From IMG/VR virus record IMGVR_UViG_2874945390_000004: 33,121 nt of DNA; one strand, 5' to 3'. Of this stretch, positions 1,609 through 19,541 are shown piece after piece (position 1 is the stretch's first letter; every line of letters begins with the position of its first letter). A program made the translations under genes and the position numbers. Source of the DNA: a virus. Its lineage: Duplodnaviria > Heunggongvirae > Uroviricota > Caudoviricetes. Under the pieces are notes generated by a model. That model searched no databases, was not told the origin of the DNA, and was given only the letters and a program-made list of their open reading frames with translations.

Positions 1609-1723
1609 CAGAAAACCCTCCGAGTGGTACTTTTTTTTGCTACTACTAATCGCTTTTTTCGTGGTGGCTGAAATTTAGCCACCAATAGTAGGCACTTGTG
1701 ATGAATATATTCACGATAAATTG

Positions 1724-2023: not shown

Positions 2024-2100
2024 AATTACTCCGATTGCGTAATTTCTTGCTGATAGTGTGAAATGTTGTGCTTCTGGAGTTATCCTTTTAGGCAATAATT

Positions 2101-2119
2101 AGCCATTAGGAGCCATTAG
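2101..2119 (+). promoter_or_regulatory. Tandem direct repeat AGCCATTAG-G-AGCCATTAG in the C/cox switch region; candidate C operator half-sites over the early promoter
   Basis: Two exact 9-bp direct repeats 10 bp apart, 26 bp upstream of the cox ATG. P2 C is known to bind directly repeated half-sites at the early promoter; the exact operator assignment is inferred. Confidence 0.45.
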
Positions 2120-2144
2120 AAGCACTAAGGGAGAATCGTAGCAG

Positions 2145-2420: not shown

Positions 2421-2430
2421 GGAGAACCGT

Positions 2431-2601
2431 ATGAATGAGCCTCGTTGTATTGCTCAGTTATTGCGTAACGAAAGCCCCAGGGCGATTGACTTCACCATCA
2501 CCCACGGTAAGGGGCGTAAGGGAATCATTATCCGCACCAAAAAACAGAGTCCGGTAAAAAAGGCTCTGACCTTTCTGAAAAGCCGGAGGGTCTGGAAATG
2601 A
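2431..2601 (+). CDS. Hypothetical small early protein (56 aa)
   Basis: ATG preceded by a strong AAGGAG ribosome-binding site at 6-nt spacing; its stop overlaps the B start (ATGA). Function unknown. Confidence 0.55.
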   Translation: MNEPRCIAQLLRNESPRAIDFTITHGKGRKGIIIRTKKQSPVKKALTFLKSRRVWK

Positions 2602-3098
2602 CAGTGATGACGCTCAATCTCGTTGAAAAACAGCCAGCAGCTATGCGCCGGATAATTGGTAAGCATCTTGCCGTTCCTCGCTGGCAGGATACATGTGATT
2701 ATTATAATCAGATGATGGAGCGCGAACGGTTAACGGTTTGCTTCCATGCTCAGTTAAAACAGCGTCACGCAACGATGCGTTTTGAAGAAATGAACGACGT
2801 CGAACGTGAACGACTGGTATGTGCAATTGATGAATTGCGCGGGGCATTCTCAAAACGCCGTCAGGTTGGCGCAAGTGAGTATGCATATATTAGTTTTTTA
2901 ACAGTCAGTCAGCGTCGCACTTTATTTATGCACGCACGACTGACAGAAAAAGAATTTAACCAGCCATACTGGCGAATTAATGAAGAATCATGTTACTGGC
3001 GTGATGCTTTATTCCGTGCATTACGTGAATTATTCAGTCTGTTTGAGTATGCACCGACAATTCTGACGTCGGTAAAACCAGAGCAATATCTGCATTAA
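2598..3098 (+). CDS. B: Replication protein B (166 aa)
   Basis: 166-aa ORF MTVMTLNLVEKQPAAMRRIIGKHLAVPRWQD... matching P2 gpB in size and sequence as recalled. Confidence 0.9.
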   Translation: MTVMTLNLVEKQPAAMRRIIGKHLAVPRWQDTCDYYNQMMERERLTVCFHAQLKQRHATMRFEEMNDVERERLVCAIDELRGAFSKRRQVGASEYAYISFLTVSQRRTLFMHARLTEKEFNQPYWRINEESCYWRDALFRALRELFSLFEYAPTILTSVKPEQYLH

Positions 3099-3161
3099 GT
3101 AATTAACCAGAGTTTTTAACGCACTTAATCGTGCGGGGCTTCTTTTTGCCTGGAGAAAGTC

Positions 3162-3386
3162 ATGCATACAGTTTCTGAAAATCAGTGCGGTAAATACGCA
3201 TTACTGCTGCAACAGGCCAGAACCGAAGCACAGGCTGATGCTGCGACGCGCTTTTCTTCTCATCTTGACGCCATGATTCGCCACATCACAAAGGCGGAGT
3301 TATCCCGCGTGGAGATAGTCGAGCTGCTCAGTCAGGAGTCGGAAAAATTTCACAACATCGGATTGTCTCGCGGGGAGGTGCTTTGA
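3162..3386 (+). CDS. Hypothetical early protein (74 aa), P2 orf80 position
   Basis: ORF with a GGAGA ribosome-binding site in the B-to-A interval, where P2 has four small ORFs (orf80 to orf83). Confidence 0.6.
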
Positions 3387-3688
3387 TGTCCTGTTCTCGT
3401 TCAGTTGTTTTACTGAACAATGCCTTAAAAATCGCCGTTATGAAAAATGGCGATTTGTCTCTTATTCAACTTGGTCTTGATAAAGAAAAACGCGAAATAA
3501 CTGAATCTGTTATCGCGATTTATCAGAGTGAATTAAACCTCCTGTCTGATGTGGTCAATTTACTTGTTAAACGCGCTGTATTTCACAAGCAAATTTCCTC
3601 CGTGGATGAACTGACGAAATTAACGACAGAAATCGCCAGCTATTGCGCTGATGAATTTAAAAAACTGAACGACAAAAGGAACTGGTAA
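3383..3688 (+). CDS. Hypothetical early protein (101 aa), P2 orf81 position
   Basis: ORF translationally coupled to the preceding one (overlapping stop and start). Confidence 0.6.
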
Positions 3689-3912
3689 TGCCGGACAACG
3701 TAGATTTTATTCAGGAACAACAGGCTGAATTACTGGAGCGCCAGATTAACGCGGCAAGGGTAAAACATTGCGGTGCTTCTGCGCTGGTTTGCGAAGAGTG
3801 TGACGCGCCAATACCTGCTGCCCGTCGTGCGGCTTATCCGTCAGCCACGCGTTGTGTTTCCTGTCAGGCAGTCTTTGAAGCAAAAAACAAACATTACCGG
3901 AGAACGGCATGA
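3688..3912 (+). CDS. TraR/DksA-type C4 zinc-finger protein (74 aa), P2 orf82 position
   Basis: CxxC...CxxC spacing (CEEC...CVSC) typical of the TraR/DksA zinc-finger family; start coupled to the upstream stop. Confidence 0.6.
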   Translation: MPDNVDFIQEQQAELLERQINAARVKHCGASALVCEECDAPIPAARRAAYPSATRCVSCQAVFEAKNKHYRRTA

Positions 3913-4184
3913 GTATTCGTATTGAAATTGGCGAACGTTATGTCGTTACCAGTGACAGCTTTCAGTTTATTCTCCACGAGAAAAAGAGAGCGGAAAGCGG
4001 TAAAAACGCCGGTCAGGAATGGCTGTCGGTGGTTGGTTATTACCCGAAATTAAGCCAGCTCGTTTCCGGCCTGATGCATCACGATATTCTGACCGGAAGC
4101 GCAAAGTCTTTTGCTGATTTAAACGCGCAGGTTGAGCAACTCAGCAAGCGTTGTTCAGAGGCTTTTGGCTCATATGGCCGTTAA
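3909..4184 (+). CDS. Hypothetical early protein (91 aa), P2 orf83 position
   Basis: ORF whose last codons overlap the start of A. Confidence 0.6.
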   Translation: MSIRIEIGERYVVTSDSFQFILHEKKRAESGKNAGQEWLSVVGYYPKLSQLVSGLMHHDILTGSAKSFADLNAQVEQLSKRCSEAFGSYGR

Positions 4185-6459
4185 AGCCTCCGGGCGTTTT
4201 GTCCCTCCGTCAGCATTTGCCGCAGGCACCGGTGAGACGTTTACCGGTGCTTATGCATGGAACGCGCCACGCGAGGCCGTCGGGCGAGAAAGACCTCTTA
4301 CACGTGACGAGATGCGTCAGGTGCAAGGTGTTTTATCCACGATAAATCGCCTGCCTTATTTTTTGCGCTCGCTGTTTACTTCACGCTATGACTACATCCG
4401 GCGCAATAAAAGCCCGGTGCACGGGTTTTATTTCCTCACATCCACTTTTCAGCGTCGTTTATGGCCGCGTATTGAGCGTGTGAATCAGCGCCATGAAATG
4501 AACACCGACGCGTCGTTGCTGTTTTTGGCAGAGCGTGACCACTATGCACGCCTGCCGGGAATGAATGACAAGGAGCTGAAAAAGTTTGCCGCCCGTATCT
4601 CATCGCAGCTTTTCATGATGTATGAGGAACTCTGCGATGCCTGGGTGGATGCGCATGGCGAAAAAGAATCGCTGTTTACGGATGAGGCGCAGGCTCACCT
4701 GTATGGTCATGTTGCTGGCGCTGCACGTGCTTTCAATATTCCCCCTCTCTACTGGAAAAAATACCGTAAAGGGCAGATGACCACGAGGCAGGCATATTCT
4801 GCCATTGCCCGTCTGTTTAACGATGAGTGGTGGACTCATCAGCTTAAAGGCCAGCGTATGCGTTGGCATGAGGCGTTACTGATTGCTGTCGGGGAGGTAA
4901 ATAAAGACCGTTCACCTTATGCCAGTAAACATGCTATTCGTGATGTGCGTGCGCGCCGCCAGGCAAATCTGGAATTTCTTAAATCGTGTGACCTTGAAAA
5001 CAGGGAAACCGGCGAACGCATCGACCTTATCAGTAAGGTGATGGGCAGTATTTCTAATCCAGAAATTCGCCGGATGGAGCTGATGAACACCATCGCCGGA
5101 ATTGAGCGTTACGCCGCCGCAGAGGGTGATGTGGGGATGTTTATCACGCTGACCGCGCCGTCAAAGTATCACCCGACACGTCAGGTCGGAAAAGGCGAAA
5201 GTAAAACCGTCCAGCTTAATCACGGCTGGAACCATGAGGCATTTAATCCAAAGGATGCGCAGCGTTATCTCTGCCGTATCTGGAGCCTGATGCGCACGGC
5301 ATTCAAGGATAATGATTTACAGGCCTACGGTTTGCGTGTCGTTGAGCCACACCACGACGGAACGCCGCACTGGCATATGATGCTTTTTTGTAATCCACGC
5401 CAGCGTAACCAGATTATTGAAATCATGCGTCGCTACGCGCTCAAAGAGGATGGAGACGAAAGAGGAGCTGCGCGAAACCGTTTTCAGGCAAAACACCTTA
5501 ACCGGGGCGGTGCTGCGGGATATATCGCGAAATACATTTCAAAAAACATCGACGGCTATGCACTGGATGGTCAGCTCGATAACGATACCGGCAGGCCGCT
5601 GAAAGACACTGCCGCGGCTGTTACCGCATGGGCGTCAACGTGGCGCATTCCGCAATTTAAAACGGTTGGCCTGCCGACAATGGGGGCTTACCGTGAACTA
5701 CGCAAATTGCCTCGCGGCGTCAGCATTGCTGATGAGTTTGACGAACGCGTCGAGGCTGCACGCGCTGCCGCAGACAGTGGCGATTTTGCGCTGTATATCA
5801 GCGCGCAGGGTGGGGCAAATGTCCCGCGCGATTGTCAGACTGTCAGGGTCGCCCGTAGCCCGTCGGATGACGTTAACGAGTACGAGGAAGAGGTCGAGAG
5901 AGTGGTCGGCATTTACGCGCCGCATCTCGGTGCGCGTCATATTCATATCACCAGAACGACGGACTGGCGCATTGTGCCGAAAGTACCGGTCGTTGAGCCT
6001 TTGACTTTAAAAAGCGGCATCGCCGCGCCTCGGAGTCCTGTCAATAACTGTGGAAAGCTCACCGGTGGTGATACTTCGTTACCGGCTCCCACACCTTCTG
6101 AGCACGCCGCAGCAGTGCTTAATCTGGTTGATGACGGTGTTATCGAATGGAGTGACCCGGAGGTCGTGAGGGCGCTCAGAGGTGCATTAAAACACGGTCG
6201 GAGAACGCCAGGTCGTCAGCAAAGAAACGGAAGCCCGTTAAAACCACATGAAATTGCACCATCGGCCAGACTGACCCGGTCGGAAAGAATGCAAATTACC
6301 CGTATCCGCGTTGACCTTGCTCAGAACGGTATCAGGCCTCAGCGATGGGAGCTTGAGGCGCTGGCGCGTGGAGCGACCGTAAATTATGACGGGAAAAAAT
6401 TCACGTATCCGGTCGCTGATGAGTGGCCGGGATTCTCAACAGTAATGGAGTGGACATAA
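4174..6459 (+). CDS. A: Replication initiation endonuclease A (rolling-circle initiator, 761 aa)
   Basis: Start placed at MAVKASGRFVPPSAF (ATG 4174), giving 761 aa as in P2 gpA; contains the HUH-type region (PHWHMMLF) and an AAGYIAKYISK motif. Confidence 0.95.
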   Translation: MAVKASGRFVPPSAFAAGTGETFTGAYAWNAPREAVGRERPLTRDEMRQVQGVLSTINRLPYFLRSLFTSRYDYIRRNKSPVHGFYFLTSTFQRRLWPRIERVNQRHEMNTDASLLFLAERDHYARLPGMNDKELKKFAARISSQLFMMYEELCDAWVDAHGEKESLFTDEAQAHLYGHVAGAARAFNIPPLYWKKYRKGQMTTRQAYSAIARLFNDEWWTHQLKGQRMRWHEALLIAVGEVNKDRSPYASKHAIRDVRARRQANLEFLKSCDLENRETGERIDLISKVMGSISNPEIRRMELMNTIAGIERYAAAEGDVGMFITLTAPSKYHPTRQVGKGESKTVQLNHGWNHEAFNPKDAQRYLCRIWSLMRTAFKDNDLQAYGLRVVEPHHDGTPHWHMMLFCNPRQRNQIIEIMRRYALKEDGDERGAARNRFQAKHLNRGGAAGYIAKYISKNIDGYALDGQLDNDTGRPLKDTAAAVTAWASTWRIPQFKTVGLPTMGAYRELRKLPRGVSIADEFDERVEAARAAADSGDFALYISAQGGANVPRDCQTVRVARSPSDDVNEYEEEVERVVGIYAPHLGARHIHITRTTDWRIVPKVPVVEPLTLKSGIAAPRSPVNNCGKLTGGDTSLPAPTPSEHAAAVLNLVDDGVIEWSDPEVVRALRGALKHGRRTPGRQQRNGSPLKPHEIAPSARLTRSERMQITRIRVDLAQNGIRPQRWELEALARGATVNYDGKKFTYPVADEWPGFSTVMEWT
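6025..6044 (+). other. Candidate replication origin / gpA nick-site region inside the 3' part of A
   Basis: The P2 origin is known to lie inside the A coding sequence; GCGCCTCGGAGTCCTGTCAA matches the nick-site region as I recall it. Exact sequence recall is uncertain. Confidence 0.3.
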
Positions 6460-6911
6460 TGGCAAAAATTCACGAGGTAAAGCTGCACGCGAAATATTTC
6501 GACCTTGTGCTGGAAGGAAAGAAACGTGCAGAGTTCCGGAAAAATGACCGTAATTATGAGCGCGGGGACACGTTGATTTTGCATGAATGGGTGCAGGGTG
6601 TGTATACGGGGCGAAAGGTTGAAGCCCGGATAACAGATGTTACTGACCTGTCAGACTGGCTGGAAGATTATGTCTTGCTAAGTATTGAGCGGCTTAATAC
6701 AGGCGCATGTGAGATTGTGAACTGGAAAGAACTTAGTGAGCGTGGTCTGGTATTCAGAATTAATCATGAAATTATGCATCAGCTCGGCCTTGCTGTTATG
6801 TATGAACCAGAGACGGGGATGTCTGGCGGGGCAATGGTTGCCACGGATGGAGCATGGAACTATTCAGATGAACAGATGGAGCGTGCACAGCAAAACGGGT
6901 GGCTTGGATAA
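6459..6911 (+). CDS. DUF3850 / ASCH-like domain protein (150 aa)
   Basis: Start overlaps the A stop (TAATG). N-terminus KIHEVKLHAKYFDLVLEGKKRAEFRKNDRNYERGDTLILHEW resembles the DUF3850 (ASCH-like) fold family as recalled. Confidence 0.55.
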   Translation: MAKIHEVKLHAKYFDLVLEGKKRAEFRKNDRNYERGDTLILHEWVQGVYTGRKVEARITDVTDLSDWLEDYVLLSIERLNTGACEIVNWKELSERGLVFRINHEIMHQLGLAVMYEPETGMSGGAMVATDGAWNYSDEQMERAQQNGWLG

Positions 6912-7117
6912 TGCACAGAATACCAGGCGAGATACCGCACCATAAAACTAAAAATATCAAGCTGATGGCTATTGTTCAGCGTTTACAGCGGATTATGGTC
7001 AACGAAAATCTGACGCCGGATGAGCTGGTCGGGTGTGCCGAAATAGTACGGGATAATTACGGGCAGCTTAACTATATCGGTCAGTCCAGAGTTGCGCCAC
7101 CACCACGAAGACGATAG
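6911..7117 (+). CDS. Hypothetical protein (68 aa)
   Basis: ATG overlapping the upstream stop (TAATG); no recognisable motif. Confidence 0.4.
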   Translation: MHRIPGEIPHHKTKNIKLMAIVQRLQRIMVNENLTPDELVGCAEIVRDNYGQLNYIGQSRVAPPPRRR

Positions 7118-7340
7118 AGAACGCCGCCAGTCGTGAAACTTGTTTTCAGGGCTGGCGGGGTTGAACAACGAGCGAAGCGAGGCGTTAGTTGACAGACATA
7201 TTTTTACTGCGTTGGTGCCGGTTTTTGACGGTTGAAAGGAGTTAGGTTGGAGAGCTAACAACTTACAAATATTCAAAAGTAAGCATCCTGTTGCTAACAT
7301 GAGGTCGATTTTTTATGTGGATGATGTAAAAAGGATAGCT

Positions 7341-8072
7341 ATGGATACTATAATCGCTTTTCTATCACTCGCTTTTTTCGCTGCTTTCTTCATCGGGTTA
7401 ATCAAGCCATCACTGGTGCGAATGCCAAACCGCAAACGTGCAAGTGCGGTTTATCTCGGAGGAGGTTTTGTATTGAGCATAATTGGTTCAATACTCTATC
7501 CAACAGAAAAAAGCCAGCCAGTTGCTAAAACTGAAACATCAACCGTTGCAGAACACAAAGTCCAAAAAACATTCGAATATGGTGAAAAAACACTCAAGGA
7601 ATATCGGAACGAGTCAAAGAAAACACGACACGATATTGTGAATAGTTACATTGATTTTAAGGAAGTTCCAGCCACCGCGTCAGATGCGTTTTATGCCTGC
7701 ATGAGTGAGTATACATTTACCAAAGATGATGAGTTGAAACTCGGTGATGTTCTTGGGTGGTGCTTTAATGATTATGAAAATGACCCGAATTCACTAAACA
7801 ATAAAATCAATCTTGATACATTTCAGAGTAATTTTAGTGGTTGGGATGGTTCTTATCGTCCATTGGAAAAACTAATTAAAGATAATATGAACGATGATTC
7901 ATCTTATAAACATGTGTCAACGGTATATCATCTGGTTTTGAATAAAGACCCGCATGCCATTGTGAAAACCACGTTTCGCGGAACTAATGCTTATGGAGGA
8001 GTGGTGAAACAGACGATTGCTGCGCGTGTTGATATAAAAACTGGTAAGGTGATATCAATCATAGATAATTGA
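7341..8072 (+). CDS. Uncharacterised membrane-anchored protein (about 243 aa), cargo island 1
   Basis: AT-rich ORF with an AAGGA ribosome-binding site before ATG 7341 (alternative upstream starts at 7299 and 7314). N-terminus has two hydrophobic helices followed by a soluble domain with no motif I recognise. Followed by a terminator. Confidence 0.6.
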   Translation: MDTIIAFLSLAFFAAFFIGLIKPSLVRMPNRKRASAVYLGGGFVLSIIGSILYPTEKSQPVAKTETSTVAEHKVQKTFEYGEKTLKEYRNESKKTRHDIVNSYIDFKEVPATASDAFYACMSEYTFTKDDELKLGDVLGWCFNDYENDPNSLNNKINLDTFQSNFSGWDGSYRPLEKLIKDNMNDDSSYKHVSTVYHLVLNKDPHAIVKTTFRGTNAYGGVVKQTIAARVDIKTGKVISIIDN

Positions 8073-8081
8073 TATCTTACA

Positions 8082-8122
8082 ATGCCGACGCTGAATATTT
8101 AATTGGGTGTCGGCATTTTTTT
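8082..8122 (+). terminator. Rho-independent terminator
   Basis: 8-bp stem ATGCCGAC/GTCGGCAT followed by a run of seven T. Confidence 0.7.
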
Positions 8123-8182
8123 GACTATTAGAGCGGCAGAACCGAGATTTGTTACGTATGAGATTAGCACTGCGAGAATGTT

Positions 8183-8965
8183 ATGAAAGTTATAAACCAA
8201 CTTAAGAAGTTTGATAAGAAAAGAACGCCAGATGATGGCCGTATTAGTTTGTTATATGAAAACGCGATTAAGTATGATATGTACTCTGTATATATTAAAG
8301 ATAAAAATGATACAGAATACCTCTTTGACTGTTTGGTTGATGGGAAGATAAAGGCTTTTAAATGGGATGATGAGGAGCGTAGATTTCATATAAGTTCATA
8401 CTTGGATATTTCTGAGCTTACGCCTGATTCTTTTTTTGGTGTTTATTACTACCGTGCGCATGAGTTGCGATTTAACTCTTTAAATGATTTAACCTTTTTA
8501 AGGGAGTTGTTTTTTAGAGTGAAGTCTAATTATGAAAATATAAAGTTTAGTCGTGAAAAATATATTTATCGACAGCAAAAAAAAGAAATAATTGATGTGA
8601 TGCTTGTTCTCTCAACGATTATAAGAATGTATCGTGAACGGGATGCTGAAACTGTGTTTAGTGAGTTTTCAATAATGGCCGAAGTCGCTGGTAGTTTATG
8701 GGTATACCATGACGATAAAAACAGGATGCGTAAAGAGCTTCGTTTATGCCTGAATTCTCTTGTTCAGAATGGAGATCTTGTTGAAACAAGTAGTGGATTT
8801 AGGCTAACAGGAAAGGCACTGAACACAATATCTACATTCAATAAAGATGAGTTGCGGTACAGAGAGAATTTGAGCACTCAGAAGAAAATGTTTTGGGCTA
8901 CTTTTTTCGCAGCAGTCGGCGGCGTAGGAAGTATGATTGCAGCTATAATAGGGCTTCTAAAATGA
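8183..8965 (+). CDS. Uncharacterised protein with C-terminal transmembrane anchor (260 aa), cargo island 1
   Basis: AT-rich ORF; C-terminal hydrophobic segment MFWATFFAAVGGVGSMIAAIIGLL; no recognisable catalytic motif. Separate transcription unit after the terminator. Confidence 0.6.
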   Translation: MKVINQLKKFDKKRTPDDGRISLLYENAIKYDMYSVYIKDKNDTEYLFDCLVDGKIKAFKWDDEERRFHISSYLDISELTPDSFFGVYYYRAHELRFNSLNDLTFLRELFFRVKSNYENIKFSREKYIYRQQKKEIIDVMLVLSTIIRMYRERDAETVFSEFSIMAEVAGSLWVYHDDKNRMRKELRLCLNSLVQNGDLVETSSGFRLTGKALNTISTFNKDELRYRENLSTQKKMFWATFFAAVGGVGSMIAAIIGLLK

Positions 8966-9125
8966 GCCAACAAAATCGTATGATGAAGTATTGAGTGAAA
9001 AGCATTCTTTATATGCATTATTTTGCATGCAACATATGCTATACATTTTAGCTATGAATTGTCAGACGTGGCAGTACTTCTGTATGGTAATGCAACTGCA
9101 TTAAAACCGCCCCATGAAGCGGGCG

Positions 9126-9144
9126 GGCGAGGCGGGGAAAGCAC
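9126..9144. other. cos site (19-nt cohesive-end sequence GGCGAGGCGGGGAAAGCAC)
   Basis: Exact match to the P2 cohesive-end sequence as recalled, located upstream of the Q/P packaging genes as expected for P2. Confidence 0.75.
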
Positions 9145-9285
9145 TGCGCGCTGGCGGTGGTGCTGATTTTATTTTTTCAGCGTCTGAGCGCGTCGTGATG
9201 GCGTTTAGATTGTTCGCCGGGGCGTTGGCGTGTATGCGGGCTGTTTTGTGCGGTGGTGAGCGTGTGAGGGCGTGATGACGGGGTG

Positions 9286-9309
9286 TAAAAAAGCCGCCCG
9301 CAGGCGGCG
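9286..9309 (-). terminator. Rho-independent terminator downstream of Q
   Basis: On the minus strand, GC-rich stem GCCGCCTGCGGGCGGC followed by a T run, immediately 3' of the Q stop. Confidence 0.6.
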
Positions 9310-9313
9310 ATGT

Positions 9314-10348
9314 TCAGCCGTTGTCAGTGTCCAGTGAGTAGTTTTTAAAGCGGATGACCTCCTGACCGAGCCAGCCGTTTATCTCGCGGATCCTGTCCTG
9401 TAACGGGATAAGCTCATTGCGGACAAAGACCTTTGCCACTTTCTCAATATCACCCAGCGACCCGACGTTCTCCGGCTTGCCGCCCATCAACTGAAAGGGG
9501 ATGCGGTGCGCGTCCAGCAAGTCAGCGGCGCTGGCTTTTTTGATATTAAAAAAATCGTCCTTCGTTGCCACTTCACTGAGCGGGATAATTTTAATGCCGT
9601 CGGCTTTTCCCTGCGGGGCATAGAGAAACAGATTTTTAAAGTTGTTGCGGCCTTTCGACTTGACCATGTTTTCGCGAAGCATTTCGATATCGTTGCGATC
9701 CTGCACGGCATCAGTGACGTACATGATGTATCCGGCATGTGCGCCGTTTTCGTAATACTTGCGGCGGAACAGCGTGGCTGACTCATTCAGCCAGGCAGAA
9801 TTAAGGGCGCTGAGATATTCCGGCAGGCCGTACAGCTCCTGATTAATATCCGGCTCCAGCAGGTGAAACACGGAGCCGGGCGCGAAGGCTGTCGGCTCGT
9901 TGAAGGACGGCACCCACCAGTAAACATCCTCCTCCACACCACGGCGGGTATATTTTGCCGGTGAGGTTTCCAGTCTGATGACCTTACCGGTGGTGCTGTA
10001 ACGCTTTTCCAGAAACGCATTACCGAACACCAGAAAATCCAGCACAAAGCGGCTGAAATCCTGCTGGGAAAGCCACGGGTGCGGAATAAACGTTGAAGCC
10101 AGAATATTACGTTTGACGTAAATCGGTGAGCTGTGATGCACGGCAGCACGCAGGCTTTTTGCCAGACCGGTAAAGCTGACCGGTGGCTCATACCATCTGC
10201 CGTTACTGATGCACTCGACGTAATCCAGAATGTCACGGCGGTCGAGTACCGGCACCGGCTCACCAAAGGTGAATGCCTCCATTTTTGGGGCGCTGGCAGT
10301 CATTTTTTTTGCCGCAGGTTGCGGTGTTTTCCCTTTTTTCTTGCTCAT
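9314..10348 (-). CDS. Q: Portal protein Q (344 aa)
   Basis: 344-aa ORF as in P2 gpQ; start overlaps the P stop (TGATG on the minus strand). Confidence 0.95.
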   Translation of the reverse strand: MSKKKGKTPQPAAKKMTASAPKMEAFTFGEPVPVLDRRDILDYVECISNGRWYEPPVSFTGLAKSLRAAVHHSSPIYVKRNILASTFIPHPWLSQQDFSRFVLDFLVFGNAFLEKRYSTTGKVIRLETSPAKYTRRGVEEDVYWWVPSFNEPTAFAPGSVFHLLEPDINQELYGLPEYLSALNSAWLNESATLFRRKYYENGAHAGYIMYVTDAVQDRNDIEMLRENMVKSKGRNNFKNLFLYAPQGKADGIKIIPLSEVATKDDFFNIKKASAADLLDAHRIPFQLMGGKPENVGSLGDIEKVAKVFVRNELIPLQDRIREINGWLGQEVIRFKNYSLDTDNG

Positions 10349-12119
10349 CAGTAAAACTCCAGAATGGTGGATGTCAGCGGGGTGCTGATACCGGCGGTGA
10401 GTGGCTCATTTAACAGGGCGTGCATGGTCGCCCAGGCGAGGTCGGCGTGGCTGGCTTCCTCGCTGCGGCTGGCCTCATAGGTGGCGCTGCGTCCGCTGCT
10501 GGTCATGGTCTTGCGGATAGCCATAAACGAGCTGGTGATGTCGGTGGCGCTGACGTCATATTCCAGACAGCCACGACGGATAACGTCTTTTGCCTTGAGC
10601 ACCATTGCGGTTTTCATTTCCGGTGTGTAGCGGATATCGCGCGCGGCGGGATAGAACGAGCGCACGAGCTGGAACACGCCGACACCGAGGCCGGTGGCAT
10701 CAATACCGATGTATTCGACGTTGTATTTTTCGGTGAGTTTGCGGATGGATTCAGCCTGGGTGGCAAAGTCCATGCCTTTCCACTGGTGACGCTCAAGTAT
10801 TCTGAATTTGCCACCGGCCACCACCGGCGGTGCCAGCACCACGCATCCGGCACTGTCGCCACGGTGTGACGGGTCGTAACCAATCCAGACCGGGCGGGAG
10901 CCGAACGGATTCGCGGCAAACGGCGCATAGTCTTCCCATTCTTCCAGCGTGTCGACCATGCAGCGTTGCAGCTCCTCGAACGGGAATACCGACGCCTTGT
11001 CGTCAACAAATTCACACATGAACAGGTTTTTAAAATCGTCGGCGCTGTTTTCGCGTTTAAGCTGCTCAATGTCGAACAGCGTGCAGCCACCTTTCAGGGC
11101 GTCCTCAATGGTGACAATCTGCCGCCACTGGCCGTCCGCACAGAGAAGCCCACCGGCAAGGGCGTTATGACTGACGTCGATTTCCACGCGTTCGGCGGCG
11201 CTGGCGCGTCCCCGGTTGAACAGTTCACCCGACCAGAACGGATAGGCGTCGTGCGCCAGCGTGGACGGGGTGGAGAAATAGGTCGAGCGCAGGTGACTCT
11301 GTGAGGCCATACCTGATGCCACCTTACGCAGTACCTGAAAATTCGGGATCCAGAAAATCTCGTCGACGTACAGGTCACCGTTATGGCTCTGTGCGGTGTT
11401 GGAGTTGGTGCCGAGAAAAATCAGTTTTGCGCCGTTATTGCCCAGGACAATCGGGTCACCGGTCAGGTCAACGTCAACCAGCCGGGCAAAGGCGATGATG
11501 TATTCGCGGAACACATACGCCTGCGTTTTACTGGCCGACAGAAAAATCTGGTTATGACCGGTTTTCAGGGCGCGCAGCAGCGCCTCGCGGGAAAAATAAA
11601 ACGTTGCGCCAATCTGGCGGGATTTCAGGATATCGCGGATGCGGTGCTCAAGCCCGGCGCGATACCAGTGCAACTGATATTCGAAAGACTGCTCAAAGAA
11701 AATCTGCTCCAGCTTTTCGATGGCCTCGTCACTGAAAAAATTCTTTTTCGGTTTGCGACGCCCGCCTTTGTTGCGGTTAGCGACGTTCGGATTAAGGTCT
11801 GCCTCGTTGCCGGTCTGACTGTAACGGTTGACCCGTGCCAGTCGTTCAATCTGGCGTCCGAGCAGGTCAATTTCCTTGAAGTCACCGCCGGTTTTCTGCG
11901 GTTTGATGATGAGCTGGGTCAGCCGCGCTTCCAGACTCATTTCGACACGGCTGATGGGGCAACGCTGTCCCAGCCGTCGCGCTGTTTCCTGCTCTGCACC
12001 GTCGGGCGTTTCATCTGCAACATGGCGGCAATCTGCGGCACGGAAAACTCCTGCCAGTACAGCAGCGCCGCCTGACGACGCGGGTCGTGTAAAAGAGTGG
12101 TGTCTGTGGTGATGGTCAT
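10348..12119 (-). CDS. P: Terminase large (ATPase) subunit P, frameshifted as sequenced
   Basis: The N-terminal 53 codons (MTITTDTTLLHDPRRQAALLYWQEF...DSVAP, from ATG 12119) are in one frame and the remainder (ISRVEMSLEARLTQ... to 10348) in another. The frames join at about 11953..11960 (GCCCCATCAGCC), consistent with loss of a single base. Restoring it gives 590 aa, the P2 gpP length. Confidence 0.85.
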
Positions 12120-12185
12120 GAATACCTCGCCGTGATGAATACACGGCAAGGCTACTGAGTCGCGTCCCGCGATTCGCTAAGGTGC

Positions 12186-12205
12186 TGTTGTGTCAGTGAT
12201 AAGCC
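12186..12205 (+). promoter_or_regulatory. Candidate late-promoter activator (Ogr) site in the divergent P/O promoter region
   Basis: TGTTGTGTCAGTGATAAGCC shares a TGTTGT-N(10-12)-A(C/G)C pattern with elements upstream of V and FI; resembles the imperfect TGT-N12-ACA dyad of P2 late promoters. Confidence 0.35.
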
Positions 12206-12292
12206 ATCCGGGACTGATGGCGGAGGATGCGCATCGTCGGGAAACTGATGCCGACATGTGACTCCTCTAATCACTATTCAGGACTCCTGACA

Positions 12293-13147
12293 ATGGCAAA
12301 AAAAGCATCAAAATTCTTTCGTATCGGCGTTGAGGGTGACACCTGTGACGGGCGTGTCATCAGTGCGCAGGATATTCAGGAAATGGCCGAAACCTTTGAC
12401 CCGCGTGTCTATGGTTGCCGTATTAACCTGGAACATCTGCGCGGCATCCTGCCTGACGGTATTTTTAAGCGTTATGGCGATGTGATCGAACTGAAGGCCG
12501 AAAAGATTGACGATGATTCGGCGCTGAAAGGCAAATGGGCGCTGTTTGCGAAAATCACCCCGACCGATGACCTTATCGCGATGAACAAGGCCGCGCAGAA
12601 GGTCTATACCTCAATGGAAATTCAGCCGAACTTTGCCAACACCGGCAAGTGTTATCTGGTGGGGCTGGCCGTCACCGATGACCCGGCAAGCCTCGGCACG
12701 GAATACCTGGAATTTTGCCGCACGGCAAAACACAACCCCCTGAACCGCTTCAAATTAAGCCCTGAAAACCTGATTTCAGTGGCAACGCCGGTTGAGCTGG
12801 AATTTGAAGACCTGCCTGAAACCGTGTTCACCGCCCTGACCGAAAAGGTGAAATCCATTTTTGGCCGCAAACAGGCCAGCGATGACGCCCGTCTGAATGA
12901 CGTGCATGAAGCGGTGACCGCTGTCGCTGAGCATGTGCAGGAAAAACTGAGCGCCACTGAGCAGCGCCTTGCTGAGATGGAAACCGCCTTTTCCGCACTT
13001 AAGCAGGATGTGACTGACAGGGCGGATGAAACCAGTCAGGCATTCACCCGCCTGAAAAACAGTCTCGACCACACCGAAAGTCTGACCCAGCAGCGCCGCA
13101 GCAAAGCCACCGGCGGTGGCGGTGACGCCCTGATGACGAACTGCTGA
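12293..13147 (+). CDS. O: Capsid scaffolding protein O (284 aa)
   Basis: Start MAKKASKFFRIGVEGDTCDGRVISAQD; 284 aa as in P2 gpO. Confidence 0.9.
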   Translation: MAKKASKFFRIGVEGDTCDGRVISAQDIQEMAETFDPRVYGCRINLEHLRGILPDGIFKRYGDVIELKAEKIDDDSALKGKWALFAKITPTDDLIAMNKAAQKVYTSMEIQPNFANTGKCYLVGLAVTDDPASLGTEYLEFCRTAKHNPLNRFKLSPENLISVATPVELEFEDLPETVFTALTEKVKSIFGRKQASDDARLNDVHEAVTAVAEHVQEKLSATEQRLAEMETAFSALKQDVTDRADETSQAFTRLKNSLDHTESLTQQRRSKATGGGGDALMTNC

Positions 13148-13205
13148 CCGGCGTCAGTCAGTCCGGGAAAACCTTCACGATTAACCCTTAATTTCAGGAA
13201 AAACT

Positions 13206-14279
13206 ATGCGCCAGGAAACCCGCTTTAAATTTAATGCCTACCTGTCCCGTGTTGCCGAACTGAACGGCATCGACGCCGGTGATGTGTCGAAAAAATTCAC
13301 CGTTGAACCGTCGGTCACCCAGACCCTGATGAACACCATGCAGGAGTCCTCTGACTTTCTGACCCGCATCAACATTGTGCCGGTCAGCGAAATGAAAGGG
13401 GAAAAAATTGGTATTGGTGTCACCGGCTCCATCGCCAGCACCACCGACACCGCCGGTGGCACCGAGCGTCAGCCGAAGGACTTCTCGAAGCTGGCGTCAA
13501 ACAAGTACGAATGCGACCAGATTAACTTCGATTTTTATATCCGCTACAAAACGCTGGACCTGTGGGCGCGTTATCAGGATTTCCAGCTCCGTGTCCGTAA
13601 CGCCATTATCAAACGCCAGTCCCTTGATTTAATCATGGCCGGTTTTAACGGCGTGAGGCGTGCCGAAACCTCTGACCGCAGCAGTAACCAGATGCTGCAG
13701 GATGTGGCGGTCGGCTGGCTGCAGAAATACCGCAATGAAGCCCCGGCGCGCGTGATGAGCAAGGTTACTGACGAGGAAGGTCACACGACCTCTGAGGTCA
13801 TCCGCGTGGGTAAGGGCGGTGATTATGCCAGCCTCGATGCACTGGTGATGGATGCGACCAACAACCTGATTGAGCCGTGGTATCAGGAAGACCCTGACCT
13901 TGTGGTGATTGTGGGGCGTCAGCTGCTGGCGGACAAATATTTCCCCATCGTCAACAGGGAGCAGGACAACAGCGAAATGCTGGCCGCTGACGTCATCATC
14001 AGCCAGAAACGCATCGGTAACCTGCCGGCGGTACGCGTCCCGTACTTCCCGGCGGATGCGATGCTCATCACGAAGCTGGAAAACCTGTCCATCTACTACA
14101 TGGATGACAGCCATCGCCGCGTGATTGAGGAAAACCCGAAACTCGACCGCGTGGAGAACTACGAGTCAATGAACATTGATTACGTGGTGGAAGACTACGC
14201 CGCCGGTTGTCTGGTGGAAAAAATTAAGGTCGGTGATTTCTCCACACCGGCTAAAGCGACCGCAGAGCCGGGAGCGTAA
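13206..14279 (+). CDS. N: Major capsid protein N (357 aa)
   Basis: 357-aa ORF as in P2 gpN, in the conserved position after O. Confidence 0.95.
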   Translation: MRQETRFKFNAYLSRVAELNGIDAGDVSKKFTVEPSVTQTLMNTMQESSDFLTRINIVPVSEMKGEKIGIGVTGSIASTTDTAGGTERQPKDFSKLASNKYECDQINFDFYIRYKTLDLWARYQDFQLRVRNAIIKRQSLDLIMAGFNGVRRAETSDRSSNQMLQDVAVGWLQKYRNEAPARVMSKVTDEEGHTTSEVIRVGKGGDYASLDALVMDATNNLIEPWYQEDPDLVVIVGRQLLADKYFPIVNREQDNSEMLAADVIISQKRIGNLPAVRVPYFPADAMLITKLENLSIYYMDDSHRRVIEENPKLDRVENYESMNIDYVVEDYAAGCLVEKIKVGDFSTPAKATAEPGA

Positions 14280-14282
14280 CCG

Positions 14283-15026
14283 ATGACGAGTCCCGCACAG
14301 CGCCACATGATGCGGGTCTCGGCAGCGATGACCGCGCAGCGGGAAGCCGCCCCGCTGCGACATGCAACTGTCTATGAGCAGATGCTGGTTAAGCTCGCCG
14401 CAGACCAGCGCACACTGAAAGCGATTTATTCAAAAGAGCTTAAGGCCGCGAAAAAACGCGAACTGCTGCCGTTCTGGTTGCCGTGGGTGAACGGCGTGCT
14501 GGAGCAGGGCAAAGGTGCACAGGATGACATTCTGATGACGGTCATGCTGTGGCGTCTGGATACCGGCGATATTGCCGGTGCGCTGGAGATTGCCCGTTAT
14601 GCCCTGAAGTACGGTCTGACCATGCCGGGTAAACACCGCCGCACCCCGCCGTACATGTTCACCGAGGAGGTGGCGCTTGCGGCCATGCGCGCCCACGCTG
14701 CCGGTGAGTCTGTGGATACCCGCCTGCTGACGGAGACCCTTGCACTGACCGCCACGGCAGACATGCCTGATGAAGTGCGCGCAAAGCTGCACAAAATCAC
14801 CGGTCTGTTTCTGCGTGACGCTGGTGATGCCGCCGGTGCGCTGGCTCACCTGCAACGTGCGACACAGCTCGACTGTCAGGCAGGCGTCAAAAAAGAGATT
14901 GAACGACTGGAGCGGGAGCTGAAACCGAAGCCGGAGCCGCAGCCCAAAGCGGCCACCCGCGCCCTGCGTAAGACCCGGAGCGTGACACCGGCAAAACGTG
15001 GACGCCCGAAAAAGAAAGCCAGTTAA
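14283..15026 (+). CDS. M: Terminase small (endonuclease) subunit M (247 aa)
   Basis: 247-aa ORF as in P2 gpM; lysine/arginine-rich C-terminus. Confidence 0.9.
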   Translation: MTSPAQRHMMRVSAAMTAQREAAPLRHATVYEQMLVKLAADQRTLKAIYSKELKAAKKRELLPFWLPWVNGVLEQGKGAQDDILMTVMLWRLDTGDIAGALEIARYALKYGLTMPGKHRRTPPYMFTEEVALAAMRAHAAGESVDTRLLTETLALTATADMPDEVRAKLHKITGLFLRDAGDAAGALAHLQRATQLDCQAGVKKEIERLERELKPKPEPQPKAATRALRKTRSVTPAKRGRPKKKAS

Positions 15027-15125
15027 CAACCGAATGCGCCCCGCGCCAGGGCGGCACGCCGGTCAGTGAGGGTGAATCACCTGACACTGCACCGGCGTCC
15101 ACCGCCCGACTTTTCAGAGGTAGTC

Positions 15126-15635
15126 ATGATGACGCTGATTATTCCGCGAAAGGAGGCTCCCGTGTCCGGTGAGGGTACGGTGGTCATCCCGCAACCGGCA
15201 GGCGACGAGCCGGTGATTAAAAACACGTTCTTTTTTCCCGATATCGACCCGAAGCGCGTCCGGGAACGTATGCGCCTTGAGCAGACCGTCGCCCCCGCCC
15301 GTCTGCGTGAGGCCATCAAGTCAGGCATGGCGGAGACGAATGCGGAGCTGTACGAGTACCGCGAACAGAAAATTGCCGCCGGTTTTACGCGTCTGGCGGA
15401 AGTCCCGGCGGACGACATCGACGGTGAAAGCATCAAAGTTTTTTACTACGAGCGCGCCGTGTGTGCGATGGCGACCGCATCGCTTTATGAGCGTTATCGC
15501 GGCGTGGATGCCAGTGCCAAAGGCGACAAGAAGGCCGACAGCATTGACAGCACCATTGATGAGCTGTGGCGGGATATGCGCTGGGCAGTGGCGCGAATCC
15601 AGGACAAGCCGCGCTGCATTGTGAGTCAAATCTGA
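15126..15635 (+). CDS. L: Head completion/stabilisation protein L (169 aa)
   Basis: Start MMTLIIPRKEAPVSGEGTVVIPQP with a GAGG ribosome-binding site; 169 aa as in P2 gpL. Confidence 0.9.
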   Translation: MMTLIIPRKEAPVSGEGTVVIPQPAGDEPVIKNTFFFPDIDPKRVRERMRLEQTVAPARLREAIKSGMAETNAELYEYREQKIAAGFTRLAEVPADDIDGESIKVFYYERAVCAMATASLYERYRGVDASAKGDKKADSIDSTIDELWRDMRWAVARIQDKPRCIVSQI

Positions 15636-15838
15636 TGAAGACCTTTGCGCTACAGGGCGACACGCTCGACGCCATCTGTGTCCGGTATTACGGGCGCACT
15701 GAGGGCGTGGTCAAGGCCGTGCTCGCCGCAAATCCGGGACTGGCTGAACTGGGAGCGGTGCTGCCGCACGGCACCGCCGTCGAACTGCCCGACGTTCAGA
15801 CCGCGCCCGTGGCTGAAACTGTCAATCTGTGGGAGTAA
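15635..15838 (+). CDS. X: Tail protein X (LysM-like, 67 aa)
   Basis: Start overlaps the L stop (TGATG); MKTFALQGDTLDAICVRYYGRTEGV; 67 aa as in P2 gpX. Confidence 0.85.
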   Translation: MKTFALQGDTLDAICVRYYGRTEGVVKAVLAANPGLAELGAVLPHGTAVELPDVQTAPVAETVNLWE

Positions 15839-15841
15839 CGC

Positions 15842-16225
15842 ATGACAGCAGAAGAAAAAAGCGTCCTGTCGCTTTTCATGATTGGGGTGCTGATTGTTGT
15901 CGGCAAGGTGCTTGCCGGTGGTGAACCCATCACCCCGCGTCTGTTTATCGGGCGCATGTTGCTCGGTGGTTTTGTCTCGATGGTTGCCGGTGTTGTTCTG
16001 GTGCAGTTTCCTGACCTGTCACTGCCTGCGGTGTGCGGCATCGGCTCCATGCTGGGTATCGCCGGTTATCAGGTGATTGAGATTGCCATTCAGCGCCGCT
16101 TTAAGGGCAGGGGAAACAGTAATGCCGGTAATCAACACGCATCAGAATATCGCTGCCTTTCTCGACATGCTGGCCGTGTCCGAAGGGACGGCGAATCATC
16201 CGCTGACGAAAAACCGTGGCTATGA
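15842..16225 (+). CDS. Y: Holin Y, with an apparent C-terminal extension from a 1-nt deletion (127 aa as sequenced; 93 aa expected)
   Basis: Matches P2 gpY up to ...IQRRFKGRG. An A run at 16114..16116 appears one base short, so the frame misses the TAATG stop/start junction with K at 16120..16124 and reads on to 16225. Confidence 0.8.
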   Translation: MTAEEKSVLSLFMIGVLIVVGKVLAGGEPITPRLFIGRMLLGGFVSMVAGVVLVQFPDLSLPAVCGIGSMLGIAGYQVIEIAIQRRFKGRGNSNAGNQHASEYRCLSRHAGRVRRDGESSADEKPWL

Positions 16226-16619
16226 CGTGATAGTCACCGGACTGGACGGGAAGTCGGAAATTTTCACCGACTACAGTGACCACCCGTTCGCGCATGGCCG
16301 ACCGGCGAAGGTGTTTAACCGTCGCGGTGAAAAAACAACGGCCTCCGGTCGCTATCAGCAGCTTTACCTGTTCTGGCCGCATTACCGCAAACAGCTTGCC
16401 CTGCCGGATTTCAGTCCGTTGTCACAGGACAGACTCGCCATTCAGTTGATCCGCGAACGCGGTGCACTGGATGACATCCGGGCGGGACGCATTGAGCGCG
16501 CCATTTCACGCTGTCGCAATATCTGGGCGTCCCTGCCGGGTGCCGGTTACGGTCAGCGTGAGCATTCACTGGAAAAACTGGTCACCGTCTGGCGTACCGC
16601 CGGCGGCGTACCGGCTTAA
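16122..16619 (+). CDS. K: Endolysin K (lysozyme, 165 aa)
   Basis: Start MPVINTHQNIAAFLDMLAVSEGT; 165 aa as in P2 gpK. Confidence 0.9.
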   Translation: MPVINTHQNIAAFLDMLAVSEGTANHPLTKNRGYDVIVTGLDGKSEIFTDYSDHPFAHGRPAKVFNRRGEKTTASGRYQQLYLFWPHYRKQLALPDFSPLSQDRLAIQLIRERGALDDIRAGRIERAISRCRNIWASLPGAGYGQREHSLEKLVTVWRTAGGVPA

Positions 16620-16633
16620 ACGGAGTAAACACC

Positions 16634-17059
16634 ATGAAGAAATTATCCCTTTCACTGATGCTGAACGTGTCGCTGGCGCTGATGCTGGCACTGTCACTGA
16701 TTTACCCGCAGAGCGTGGCCGTCAGTTTTGTCGCTGCCTGGGCGATTCTGGCGACGGTTATCTGTGTGGTTGCCGGTGGTGTCGGCGTGTATGCCACTGA
16801 GTATGTGCTGGAACGCTACGGGCGGGAGCTGCCGCCGGAATCGCTGGCCGTGAAGATTGTCACGTCGCTGTTTTTGCAGCCGGTGCCGTGGCGCAGGCGG
16901 GCAGCGGCTCTGGTGGTGATGGTGGCGACATTTATCTCGCTGGTCGCTGCCGGGTGGATTTTTACTGCGCTGATTTACCTCGTGGCGTCGCTGTTCTTCC
17001 GGCTGATACGTACGGCCTGCCGTCAGCGTTTTGAGGGGCGGGAACCATGTCAAAGCTGA
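16634..17059 (+). CDS. lysA: LysA lysis-timing membrane protein (141 aa)
   Basis: Multi-pass hydrophobic 141-aa ORF in the P2 lysA position with a GGAG ribosome-binding site. Confidence 0.8.
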   Translation: MKKLSLSLMLNVSLALMLALSLIYPQSVAVSFVAAWAILATVICVVAGGVGVYATEYVLERYGRELPPESLAVKIVTSLFLQPVPWRRRAAALVVMVATFISLVAAGWIFTALIYLVASLFFRLIRTACRQRFEGREPCQS

Positions 17060-17472
17060 TGACTGTGCTGGTTGTGTTGTTATCACTGGCGGTGGCGGGG
17101 CTGTTTCTGGTGAAGCATGAAAATGCCAGCCTGCGCACCTCACTGGACAGGGCGAACAGCGTCGCCAGCGGGCAGCAGACGACCATCACCATGCTGAAAA
17201 ATCAGCTTCATGTTGCCCTCACCAGGGCAGACAAAAACGAGCTGGCGCAGGTGGCACTGCGTCAGGAACTGGAAAACGCCGCGAAGCGTGAAGCTCAGCG
17301 CGAGAAAACCATCACGAGATTACTCAATGAAAACGAAGATTTCCGCCGCTGGTACGGTGCTGACCTGCCTGATGTTGTGCGCCGGTTGCACCAGCGTCCG
17401 GCCTGCACCGACGCCAGTGATTGTCGCCAACGCCTGCCCGAAAGTGAGTCTTTGCCCGATGCCGGGCAGTGA
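17047..17472 (+). CDS. lysB: LysB, Rz-like inner-membrane spanin (141 aa)
   Basis: N-terminal transmembrane helix followed by a charged coiled-coil-like region; P2 lysB position and size. Confidence 0.8.
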   Translation: MSKLMTVLVVLLSLAVAGLFLVKHENASLRTSLDRANSVASGQQTTITMLKNQLHVALTRADKNELAQVALRQELENAAKREAQREKTITRLLNENEDFRRWYGADLPDVVRRLHQRPACTDASDCRQRLPESESLPDAGQ

Positions 17473-17617
17473 CCCGCAGACGAACGGCGATTTAAGTGCC
17501 GATATCCGGCAGCTTGAGAACGCGCTGGCACGCTGTGCCAGCCAGGTAAAAATGATTAAACACTGTCAGGATGAAAACGATGCTCAAACCCGACAGCCTG
17601 CGCAGGGCGCTGACTGA
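17327..17617 (+). CDS. lysC: LysC, Rz1-like outer-membrane lipoprotein spanin (96 aa), embedded in the +1 frame of lysB
   Basis: ORF in an alternative frame within lysB that runs into R; lipobox LCAGC after a signal peptide (MKTKISAAGTVLTCLMLCAGC); 96 aa as in P2 LysC. Confidence 0.7.
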   Translation: MKTKISAAGTVLTCLMLCAGCTSVRPAPTPVIVANACPKVSLCPMPGSDPQTNGDLSADIRQLENALARCASQVKMIKHCQDENDAQTRQPAQGAD

Positions 17618-18047
17618 TGCCGTCACGGTGCTGAAAACCAGTCCAGAGATGCTGCGGATATTCGTGGATAACGGGAGTATTGCCTCCACACTGGCGACGT
17701 CGTTGTCATTCGAAAAGCGTTACACGCTCAATGTGATTGTGACCGACTTTACCGGTGATTTTGACCTGCTCATCGTGCCGGTGCTGGCGTGGCTGCGGGA
17801 AAATCAGCCCGACATCATGACCACCGACGAAGGCCAGAAAAAGGGCTTCACGTTTTATGCAGACATCAACAATGACAGCAGCTTTGATATCAGTATCAGC
17901 CTGATGCTGACCGAGCGCACGCTGGTCAGTGAGGTGGACGGCGCGCTGCATGTGAAGAATATCCCGGAACCTCCGCCGCCGGAGCCGGTCACCCGCCCGA
18001 TGGAGCTGTATATCAATGGCGAACTCGTGAGTAAGTGGGATGAATGA
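17580..18047 (+). CDS. R: Tail completion protein R (155 aa)
   Basis: MLKPDSLRRALTDAVTVLK...; 155 aa as in P2 gpR. An alternative in-frame ATG lies at 17571. Confidence 0.85.
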   Translation: MLKPDSLRRALTDAVTVLKTSPEMLRIFVDNGSIASTLATSLSFEKRYTLNVIVTDFTGDFDLLIVPVLAWLRENQPDIMTTDEGQKKGFTFYADINNDSSFDISISLMLTERTLVSEVDGALHVKNIPEPPPPEPVTRPMELYINGELVSKWDE

Positions 18048-18492
18048 GTTTAAGCGTTTTGAAGACCGGCTGACCGGACTGATTGAGTCGCTGTCACCGT
18101 CAGGGCGTCGGCGACTGAGTGCCGAACTGGCGAAACGTCTGCGGCAGAGTCAGCAGCGTCGGGTGATGGCACAGAAAGCCCCGGATGGCACACCCTATGC
18201 GCCACGCCAGCAGCAGAGCGCCAGAAAAAAGACCGGTCGCGTTAAGCGAAAAATGTTTGCGAAACTTATCACCAGTCGTTTTTTGCATATCCGCGCCAGC
18301 CCGGAACAGGCATCAATGGAATTTTACGGCGGGAAGTCACCGAAAATCGCCAGCGTGCATCAGTTTGGTCTGTCGGAAGAAACCCGGAAAGACGGTAAGA
18401 AAATTGATTATCCGGCGCGTCCTCTGCTCGGCTTTACCGGTGAGGATGTGCAGATGATTGAAGAGATTATCCTGGCTCACCTCGACCGTTAG
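18040..18492 (+). CDS. S: Tail completion protein S (150 aa)
   Basis: 150-aa ORF overlapping the R stop; P2 gpS size and position. Confidence 0.85.
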   Translation: MNEFKRFEDRLTGLIESLSPSGRRRLSAELAKRLRQSQQRRVMAQKAPDGTPYAPRQQQSARKKTGRVKRKMFAKLITSRFLHIRASPEQASMEFYGGKSPKIASVHQFGLSEETRKDGKKIDYPARPLLGFTGEDVQMIEEIILAHLDR

Positions 18493-18511
18493 TTGTGCCA
18501 TTCCCGACACC
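18493..18511 (+). promoter_or_regulatory. Candidate late-promoter activator site upstream of V
   Basis: TTGTGCCATTCCCGACACC about 60 bp upstream of the V start, sharing the TGTTGT-N-AC(C) pattern with the O and FI upstream regions. Confidence 0.3.
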
Positions 18512-18558
18512 TCATCGTTACATTGCCGCCGGTATGACCCGGCGGCATCCTTCCCGTT

Positions 18559-19224
18559 ATGAACACTCTCGCAAATATCCAGGAACTCGCGCGCGCACTG
18601 CGCAACATGATCCGCACCGGCCTTGTCGTCGAAACCAACCTTAAAGCCGGTCGCTGCCGTGTGCAGACCGGCGGCATGTGCACCGACTGGCTTCAGTGGC
18701 TGACCCATCGCGCCGGTCGTTCGCGCACATGGTGGGCACCTTCCGTGGGGGAGCAGGTGCTGATTCTGGCCGTGGGCGGTGAACTTGACACGGCGTTTGT
18801 TCTGCCGGGGATTTATTCCGGCGATAACCCCGCGCCGTCTGCGTCGGCGGATGCCCTGCATATCCGTTTCCCTGACGGGGCGGTGATTGAGTATGAACCC
18901 GAAACCAGTGCACTCACGGTAAGCGGAATTAAAACGGCCAGCGTGACGGCTTCTGATTCTGTTACTGCCACGGTGCCGGTGGTCATGGTGAAAGCATCAA
19001 CCCGCGTCACCCTGGACACACCGGAGGTGGTCTGCACCAACAGGCTGATTACCGGCACGCTGGAAGTGCAGAAGGGCGGGACGATGCGCGGCAACATTGA
19101 ACACACCGGCGGTGAACTCTCATCAAACGGTAAGGTACTGCATACCCATAAACACCCGGCGACAGCGGCGGCACAACCGGGAGCCCTCTATGACAGCGCG
19201 TTATCTCGGAATGAATCGCAGTGA
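18559..19224 (+). CDS. V: Baseplate spike protein V, with a C-terminal frameshift as sequenced (221 aa; 211 aa expected)
   Basis: Matches P2 gpV to ...HTHKHP. A G run at 19158..19159 appears one base short; the alternative frame reads GDSGGTTGSPL and stops at TGA 19191..19193, overlapping the W ATG (ATGA), which gives exactly 211 aa. Confidence 0.85.
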   Translation: MNTLANIQELARALRNMIRTGLVVETNLKAGRCRVQTGGMCTDWLQWLTHRAGRSRTWWAPSVGEQVLILAVGGELDTAFVLPGIYSGDNPAPSASADALHIRFPDGAVIEYEPETSALTVSGIKTASVTASDSVTATVPVVMVKASTRVTLDTPEVVCTNRLITGTLEVQKGGTMRGNIEHTGGELSSNGKVLHTHKHPATAAAQPGALYDSALSRNESQ

Positions 19225-19537
19225 TGGCCTGACTGTCACTGACCTTGAGCATATCAGCCAGAGTATCGGCGATATCCTGCGCACACCGGTCGGCTCACGG
19301 GTGATGCGCCGTGATTACGGCTCGTTGCTGGCGTCAATGATTGACCAGCCGCAGACCCCGGCGCTTGAGTTGCAGATTAAGGTCGCCTGTTACATGGCGG
19401 TGCTGAAATGGGAACCCCGCGTCACCCTGTCATCCGTCACCACTGAGCGCAGTTTTGACGGGCGAATGACGGTCACGTTAACCGGCCAGCACAACGACAC
19501 CGGCCAGCCACTTTCGTTAACCATCCCTGTGAGTTGA
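19190..19537 (+). CDS. W: Baseplate wedge protein W (115 aa)
   Basis: MTARYLGMNRSDGLTVTDLEHISQSIGDIL; 115 aa as in P2 gpW. Confidence 0.9.
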   Translation: MTARYLGMNRSDGLTVTDLEHISQSIGDILRTPVGSRVMRRDYGSLLASMIDQPQTPALELQIKVACYMAVLKWEPRVTLSSVTTERSFDGRMTVTLTGQHNDTGQPLSLTIPVS

Positions 19538-19541
19538 AACC

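Follow-up and report, generated by a model that had tools for sequence, protein, structure and literature searches.

The window analysed here, a stretch of 33,121 nucleotides, was identified by exact-protein look-ups as part of the 5.1-Mb Shigella boydii chromosome CP026836.1 (NCBI GCA_002950135.1). The record is also cited as Shigella boydii in the literature. The window holds a P2-like prophage lying between yegR (1..318) and yegQ/trhP (31760..33121), and this element is collinear with phage P2 and with many E. coli prophages integrated at the same site. The yegR-yegQ/trhP site is very commonly occupied by P2-like prophages, and the element studied here resembles the defective ones known from this position in E. 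coli and Shigella, with which it shares the site; here an internal deletion affects the tail genes. K-12 keeps only an ogrK/yegZ remnant at yegR-yegQ. Unlike the K-12 remnant, the prophage of the window is nearly full-length, and its real lesions are an 891-bp FI-FII fusion and missense changes.

Compared with E. coli H10, the window has an insertion of 12 bp (463..474) between yegR and the integrase gene, close to the left attachment site, and the same stretch aligns poorly to E. coli 89-3156. Further in, three cargo genes are located between the replication gene A and the portal gene Q (window 6423..8965):

6423..6911, DUF3850/ASCH/DUF7415 protein, assigned by Pfam match
7299..8072, ORF of 257 aa, without a Pfam or PADLOC match
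8183..8965, ORF of 260 aa, without a Pfam or PADLOC match

Scanned with Pfam and PADLOC, the accessory genes gave no match other than DUF3850/ASCH on one of them. In other prophages at the same site, the A-Q slot harbors different cargo, including SIR2, AAA_13 and methylase/HATPase genes.

Gene P, encoding the P2-type terminase, adjoins Q, lies on its strand and diverges from O-N-M-L. As given in the window, it does not form a single frame of about 590 codons but is read as 60 aa and 530 aa in two different frames. The features of this region are the following:

10348..12119, minus strand, gene P, P2-type terminase ATPase/large subunit, whole span with the missing base restored (590 aa), assigned by nucleotide identity, repaired translation and Pfam
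11937..12119, minus strand, N-terminal fragment ORF of 60 aa, in which SAVSK and a stop come after native residues 1-55 (E24 and R44 included), and which spans the Terminase_5 HTH
11956..11959, shortened homopolymer in P, read as GGGG on the plus strand and as CCCC in the gene, five bases long in all relatives and in a read-based assembly of the same prophage
10348..11940, minus strand, C-terminal ORF of 530 aa, identical to reference residues 61-590 (ATPase and nuclease) and starting at the native Met61 (ATG 11938..11940)
11937..11940, minus strand, ATGA overlap, with the TGA of the short ORF over the ATG of Met61, by direct reading

Gene P shares 98.4-98.8% nucleotide identity with P of P2, L-413C, Wphi, fiAA91-ss and others. 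With P2 gpP (590 aa) in particular, the identity around the site is 98.6%, and the domain order, the repaired length and the Q-P / O-N-M-L neighbourhood are alike. What sets the window apart from P2 gpP is the loss of one C of a C5 run and, as the real allele of this lineage, the substitutions G24E and W44R in the HTH. Alignment of the coding (minus) strand shows GTTGCCCCATCAGCC in the window and GTTGCCCCCATCAGCC in both P2 (L002) and the prophage of E. coli strain 144 (L001). The short frame starting from the ATG at 12119 ends at a TGA at 11937..11939, and the codon of Pro55 changes from CCC to CCA, so that the proline is kept.

A sequence-only reading of this DNA had proposed that P is split by one base missing from a short homopolymer, and had suggested aligning the region to gpP of P2-like phages. 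This alignment bears the proposal out. The P2 and E. coli copies aligned carry the C5 run in one frame, and all 76 of 76 phage matches, as well as all E. coli matches listed, span 502 bases where the query spans 501. Because the matched relatives are one base longer, the C4 window is the odd one out, and the break is not a chance pattern of frames. Adding one base back gives a translation of exactly 590 aa, the length of P2 gpP, as had been predicted. The extent of the first frame needs correction, in that 55 native codons, and not 53, precede the break before SAVSK begins. The order of domains is that of a P2-type terminase, namely the Terminase_5 (PF06056) HTH, then the Terminase_6N ATPase, then the Terminase_6C RNaseH-like nuclease. 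Terminase_5 scored 71.5 bits (residues 12-60), and the 530-aa part matched Terminase_6N with 203.5 bits and Terminase_6C with 161 bits.

The same reading had also pointed to breaks in genes Y and V and had left open whether all three reflect systematic homopolymer sequencing error or real decay of the prophage. To follow the lineage in public data, we used as a handle the fusion protein encoded by the following ORF:

25776..26606, FI-FII fusion ORF, in frame, 276 aa, with 891 bp of the tail sheath/tube genes gone, defined by comparison with L003 and L004

The junction lies at an 8-bp microhomology, AAATCGAC (window 26425..26432), and the chimera has an N-terminal sheath match and a C-terminal tube match in Pfam. 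The exact fusion protein was found on 5 contigs, 4 of them from Logan read-based assemblies, in which the prophage occupies the same chromosomal site. Since the 891-bp deletion is common to read-based assemblies, it is real. It must prevent the formation of tails and is the true cause of the prophage's defect.

The proteins P, Y and V were then repaired, with the window's own substitutions retained, and looked up exactly. All three repaired proteins are present exactly in public data. Repaired P (P0021, with E24 and R44) occurs on 2 Logan contigs, repaired Y equals the P2 holin (P0022), and repaired V (P0037) is recorded on at least 1000 contigs. Conversely, the exact 60-aa product of P with E24 and R44 is recorded only in CP026836.1, and exact look-ups of the frameshifted 221-aa V and 127-aa Y likewise found the source record only.

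A Logan assembly (L020, run ERR200293) covers window 348..21493 in an alignment of 21,149 bp, which contains 0 substitutions and exactly 3 gaps. Each of these gaps is a loss of 1 nt from the window in a run of G or C, and they fall in P (at window 11955/11956), Y and V. The breaks in Y and V are thus the same phenomenon as that in P, as the sequence-only reading had supposed. In L020, the genes encode 590 aa (P), 93 aa (Y) and 211 aa (V), and all three terminase domains lie on the single 590-aa product. The P of L020 is the same allele with the base present, because E24 and R44, otherwise unique to the window, are carried there as well.

The remainder of the window was covered by a second assembly (L019, run ERR200294), whose alignment to window 21853..33121 extends across 11,271 bp and shows 1 synonymous SNP and 3 homopolymer indels. 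All three indels are within one accessory gene. The genes affected besides P are therefore these:

16110..16113, holin gene Y, G5 apparently read as G4, turning 93 aa into a 127-aa ORF; gap against L020 at window 16109/16110
19155..19157, baseplate spike gene V, C4 apparently read as C3, turning 211 aa into a 221-aa ORF; gap against L020 at window 19154/19155
23948..25365, minus strand, accessory gene between the tail-fibre assembly gene G and FI, with three probable homopolymer miscalls against L019

The three changes in the accessory gene are C6 to C5 at 24784..24788, T8 to T9 at 25098..25106 and C4 to C3 at 25310..25312. The gene is an intact ORF of 472 aa in L019, as opposed to 280 + 53 aa in L018. 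It holds the position that Z/fun has in P2, is without a Pfam or PADLOC match, and is also present as an intact 472-aa ORF in E. coli 89-3156.

Overall, 6 homopolymer indels, 5 of them under-calls, were counted against 1 substitution over 32.4 kb. Under a binomial model in which 10% of real mutations are indels, finding at least 6 indels in 7 differences has a probability of 6e-6; with 20%, it is 4e-4. The fraction of runs affected was 1/1 for C6, 2/~17 for G/C5, 2/~89 for G/C4 and 0/~450 for G/C3. In 6/6 cases, the read-based version restores the ORF and fits the run length of the relatives compared. The position of the frameshifts close to gene ends (the 5' end of P, the 3' ends of Y and V) had been considered as a possible sign of tolerant selection; this was rejected, as none of them is found in the read-based assembly.

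When L003 and L004, the complete E. coli prophages nearest to the window, were compared with it, the single-base indels in well-aligned sequence were all in homopolymers. They are located at 9280 (intergenic), 11956 (P), 16110 (Y), 19155 (V) and at 24784, 25098 and 25310 (the one accessory gene). The first of these sites is of another kind:

9280..9283, intergenic G4 upstream of Q, G5 in E. coli 89-3156, G4 common to the window and L020 (ERR200293)

Because the ERR200293 assembly has the same length here, this G4 is a real polymorphism.

Two further differences in gene P were found to be shared with the read-based copy:

12048..12050, minus strand, codon 24, GAG (Glu) where all other copies examined have GGG (Gly), from alignment and L020
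11988..11990, minus strand, codon 44, AGG (Arg) where all other copies examined have TGG (Trp), in the region of the HTH recognition helix, from alignment and L020

G24E and W44R are true substitutions of the lineage and not errors. Their joint effect is a drop of 13.6 bits in the Terminase_5 score (85.1 to 71.5), while HTH_23 falls from 36.3 to 25.5 and HTH_28 from 30.3 to 18.3. With regard to their distribution, 2 of the 55 N-terminal codons of gpP are substituted against 0 of the remaining 535 (Fisher p = 0.0085). This looks like relaxed constraint in a prophage that would no longer be able to form particles.

Taken together, we are confident that the break in P has no biological origin and comes from an erroneous consensus in the source assembly CP026836.1. 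A ratio of six homopolymer indels to one substitution is typical of long-read consensus error and not of mutation: all six are 1-nt changes inside a mononucleotide run, the majority are under-calls, and those in P, Y and V are absent from L020. The C5 run in P would have been called as C4 in an assembly that was probably made from PacBio reads only, and the actual DNA of the prophage lineage would encode a continuous gpP of 590 aa. The same mode of error would give rise to the breaks in Y and V and to the three breaks in the accessory gene, and neither recoding nor a pseudogenisation event would have occurred at the P site. Two assumptions underlie this explanation: the technology used to sequence the source, and an origin of the ERR runs from the same strain or from one in which no mutation has intervened. 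As for the technology, the accession block CP026774-CP026878 is attributed to a PacBio-only data set, and CP026836.1 falls inside this block, which is our ground for taking the record to be probably made from PacBio reads only.

Errors of this type have been documented. In one finished genome, PacBio RS II called homopolymers too short, which produced ~240 spurious 1-nt deletions and many frameshifts that were not real, as Sanger sequencing confirmed (PMC4687164). The window resembles this case, that of Clostridium autoethanogenum, where false frameshifts arose from 1-base losses in runs of ~4-8 bases with deletions predominating (PMC4687164). In both, the errors vanish on comparison with short reads, with the proviso that the read type and the isolate of the ERR runs are assumed here. 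The two cases differ in that the published one had ~240 errors in 4.35 Mb and ours 6 in 32 kb, about threefold the density, which has to be counted against a miscall. They also differ in that one of our six is an over-call (T8 to T9) and that our technology is deduced from the accession block. It likewise counts against a miscall that no indel was found in the 6.5 kb of host DNA comparable between the source and the read-based assemblies, so that the error is shown within the prophage alone. This includes 4.8 kb of additional host DNA, which revealed no differences.

The main alternative is a real decay private to the isolate, in which the PacBio-sequenced isolate, once separated from those of ERR200293 and ERR200294, lost one C in P and one base in each of Y, V and the accessory gene. 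P would then be a genuine pseudogene in an already defective prophage. The two runs possibly represent sister isolates, and the isolate sequenced by PacBio could have a mutation that they lack. Moreover, the FI-FII deletion is common to the read-based assemblies, so further frameshifts would be neutral and selection would not oppose them, and gpP had already acquired two radical HTH substitutions in its N-terminal codons. Homopolymers are natural hot spots of slippage too, and the identical C5-to-C4 change is recorded on another background in 50 public contigs. On the other hand, no natural mutation spectrum comes close to 6 indels and 1 substitution over 32.4 kb, and for six independent frameshifts to arise in the time of at most one SNP, indels would have to occur at a rate of about 2e-4 per bp. 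In addition, a stretch of 530 bp in one gene holds three of the six indels, and the lesions are exclusively under- or over-calls of runs, with no other type among them. The FI-FII deletion was reproduced in independent data, but the frameshifts in P, Y, V and the accessory gene were not. We thus regard such decay as improbable. Of the two possibilities raised by the sequence-only reading, it is systematic homopolymer error that the data favor, since the six indels are absent from read-based assemblies that are otherwise identical bar one SNP. Real decay at the P site did not find support, although the prophage is defective for other reasons (the FI-FII deletion and the HTH substitutions in gpP).

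It is more doubtful still that C4 is real in some strains, be it the PacBio-sequenced isolate or the lineage of the 50 contigs, with the ATGA overlap giving a working two-piece terminase. If true, this would be a natural two-piece P2 large terminase, with the N-terminal HTH acting in trans or being dispensable.

Least credible of all is a functionally split or recoded terminase at this gene. Ribosomes would either slip by -1 on the C-run or terminate and reinitiate at the ATGA, the latter yielding an HTH peptide of 60 aa on its own and a separate ATPase-nuclease of 530 aa. In its favor, the TGA of the first frame overlaps the ATG of Met61, the break falls where the Terminase_5 HTH (residues 12-60) gives way to the Terminase_6N/6C body, and databases name stand-alone "terminase gpP N-terminus-related DNA-binding protein" entries. 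Against it, the read-based copy of the same allele is unsplit, the C4 form, looked for on the common background too, has an exact match in 0/1,728 P copies from 5,426 complete E. coli genomes, and many of the stand-alone entries are marked partial and represent fragments at contig ends. Read directly, GCC CCA UCA does not contain an X XXY YYZ slippery heptamer, and Met61 is not preceded by a sequence resembling a Shine-Dalgarno motif. The ATGA overlap arises automatically from the one-base deletion and is a mere by-product of the missing base. Nor is the two-frame arrangement conserved, as every other full copy fetched has C5 and a single frame.

If the breaks are consensus errors, as we conclude, at least six false frameshifts lie in 33 kb of a "complete" Shigella chromosome, which is a warning about data quality. 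Pseudogene counts, calls of prophage intactness and inferences of gene decay drawn from CP026836.1 would be inflated unless the sequence is polished with short reads, and sister PacBio-only records are probably inflated likewise. The correct picture would be that of a P2-like element truly defective through its sheath/tube fusion and through damaging substitutions in the DNA-binding domain of gpP, and not through frameshifts in P, Y and V.

Among other loci, we observed further lesions that leave the 530-aa ORF starting at Met61, namely W44* (L010) and an 8-bp duplication (L007). Four large deletions (L008, L009, L011, L012) end within ~20 nt upstream of Met61 and also leave this ORF. These loci were retrieved by looking up the exact 530-aa product, so a clustering of end points is expected, and an apparent deletion hot spot upstream of Met61 was judged to be a selection bias.

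On the common G24/W44 background, the change from C5 to C4 yields a 60-aa peptide (P0052), which is carried by the 50 contigs mentioned above (NCBI, ENA and Logan), GHK16300.1 among them. Two examples are located as follows:

L013 (SRR13748967), 2822..3004, C4 on the G24/W44 background
L014 (SRR2014853), 2822..3004, C4 on the G24/W44 background
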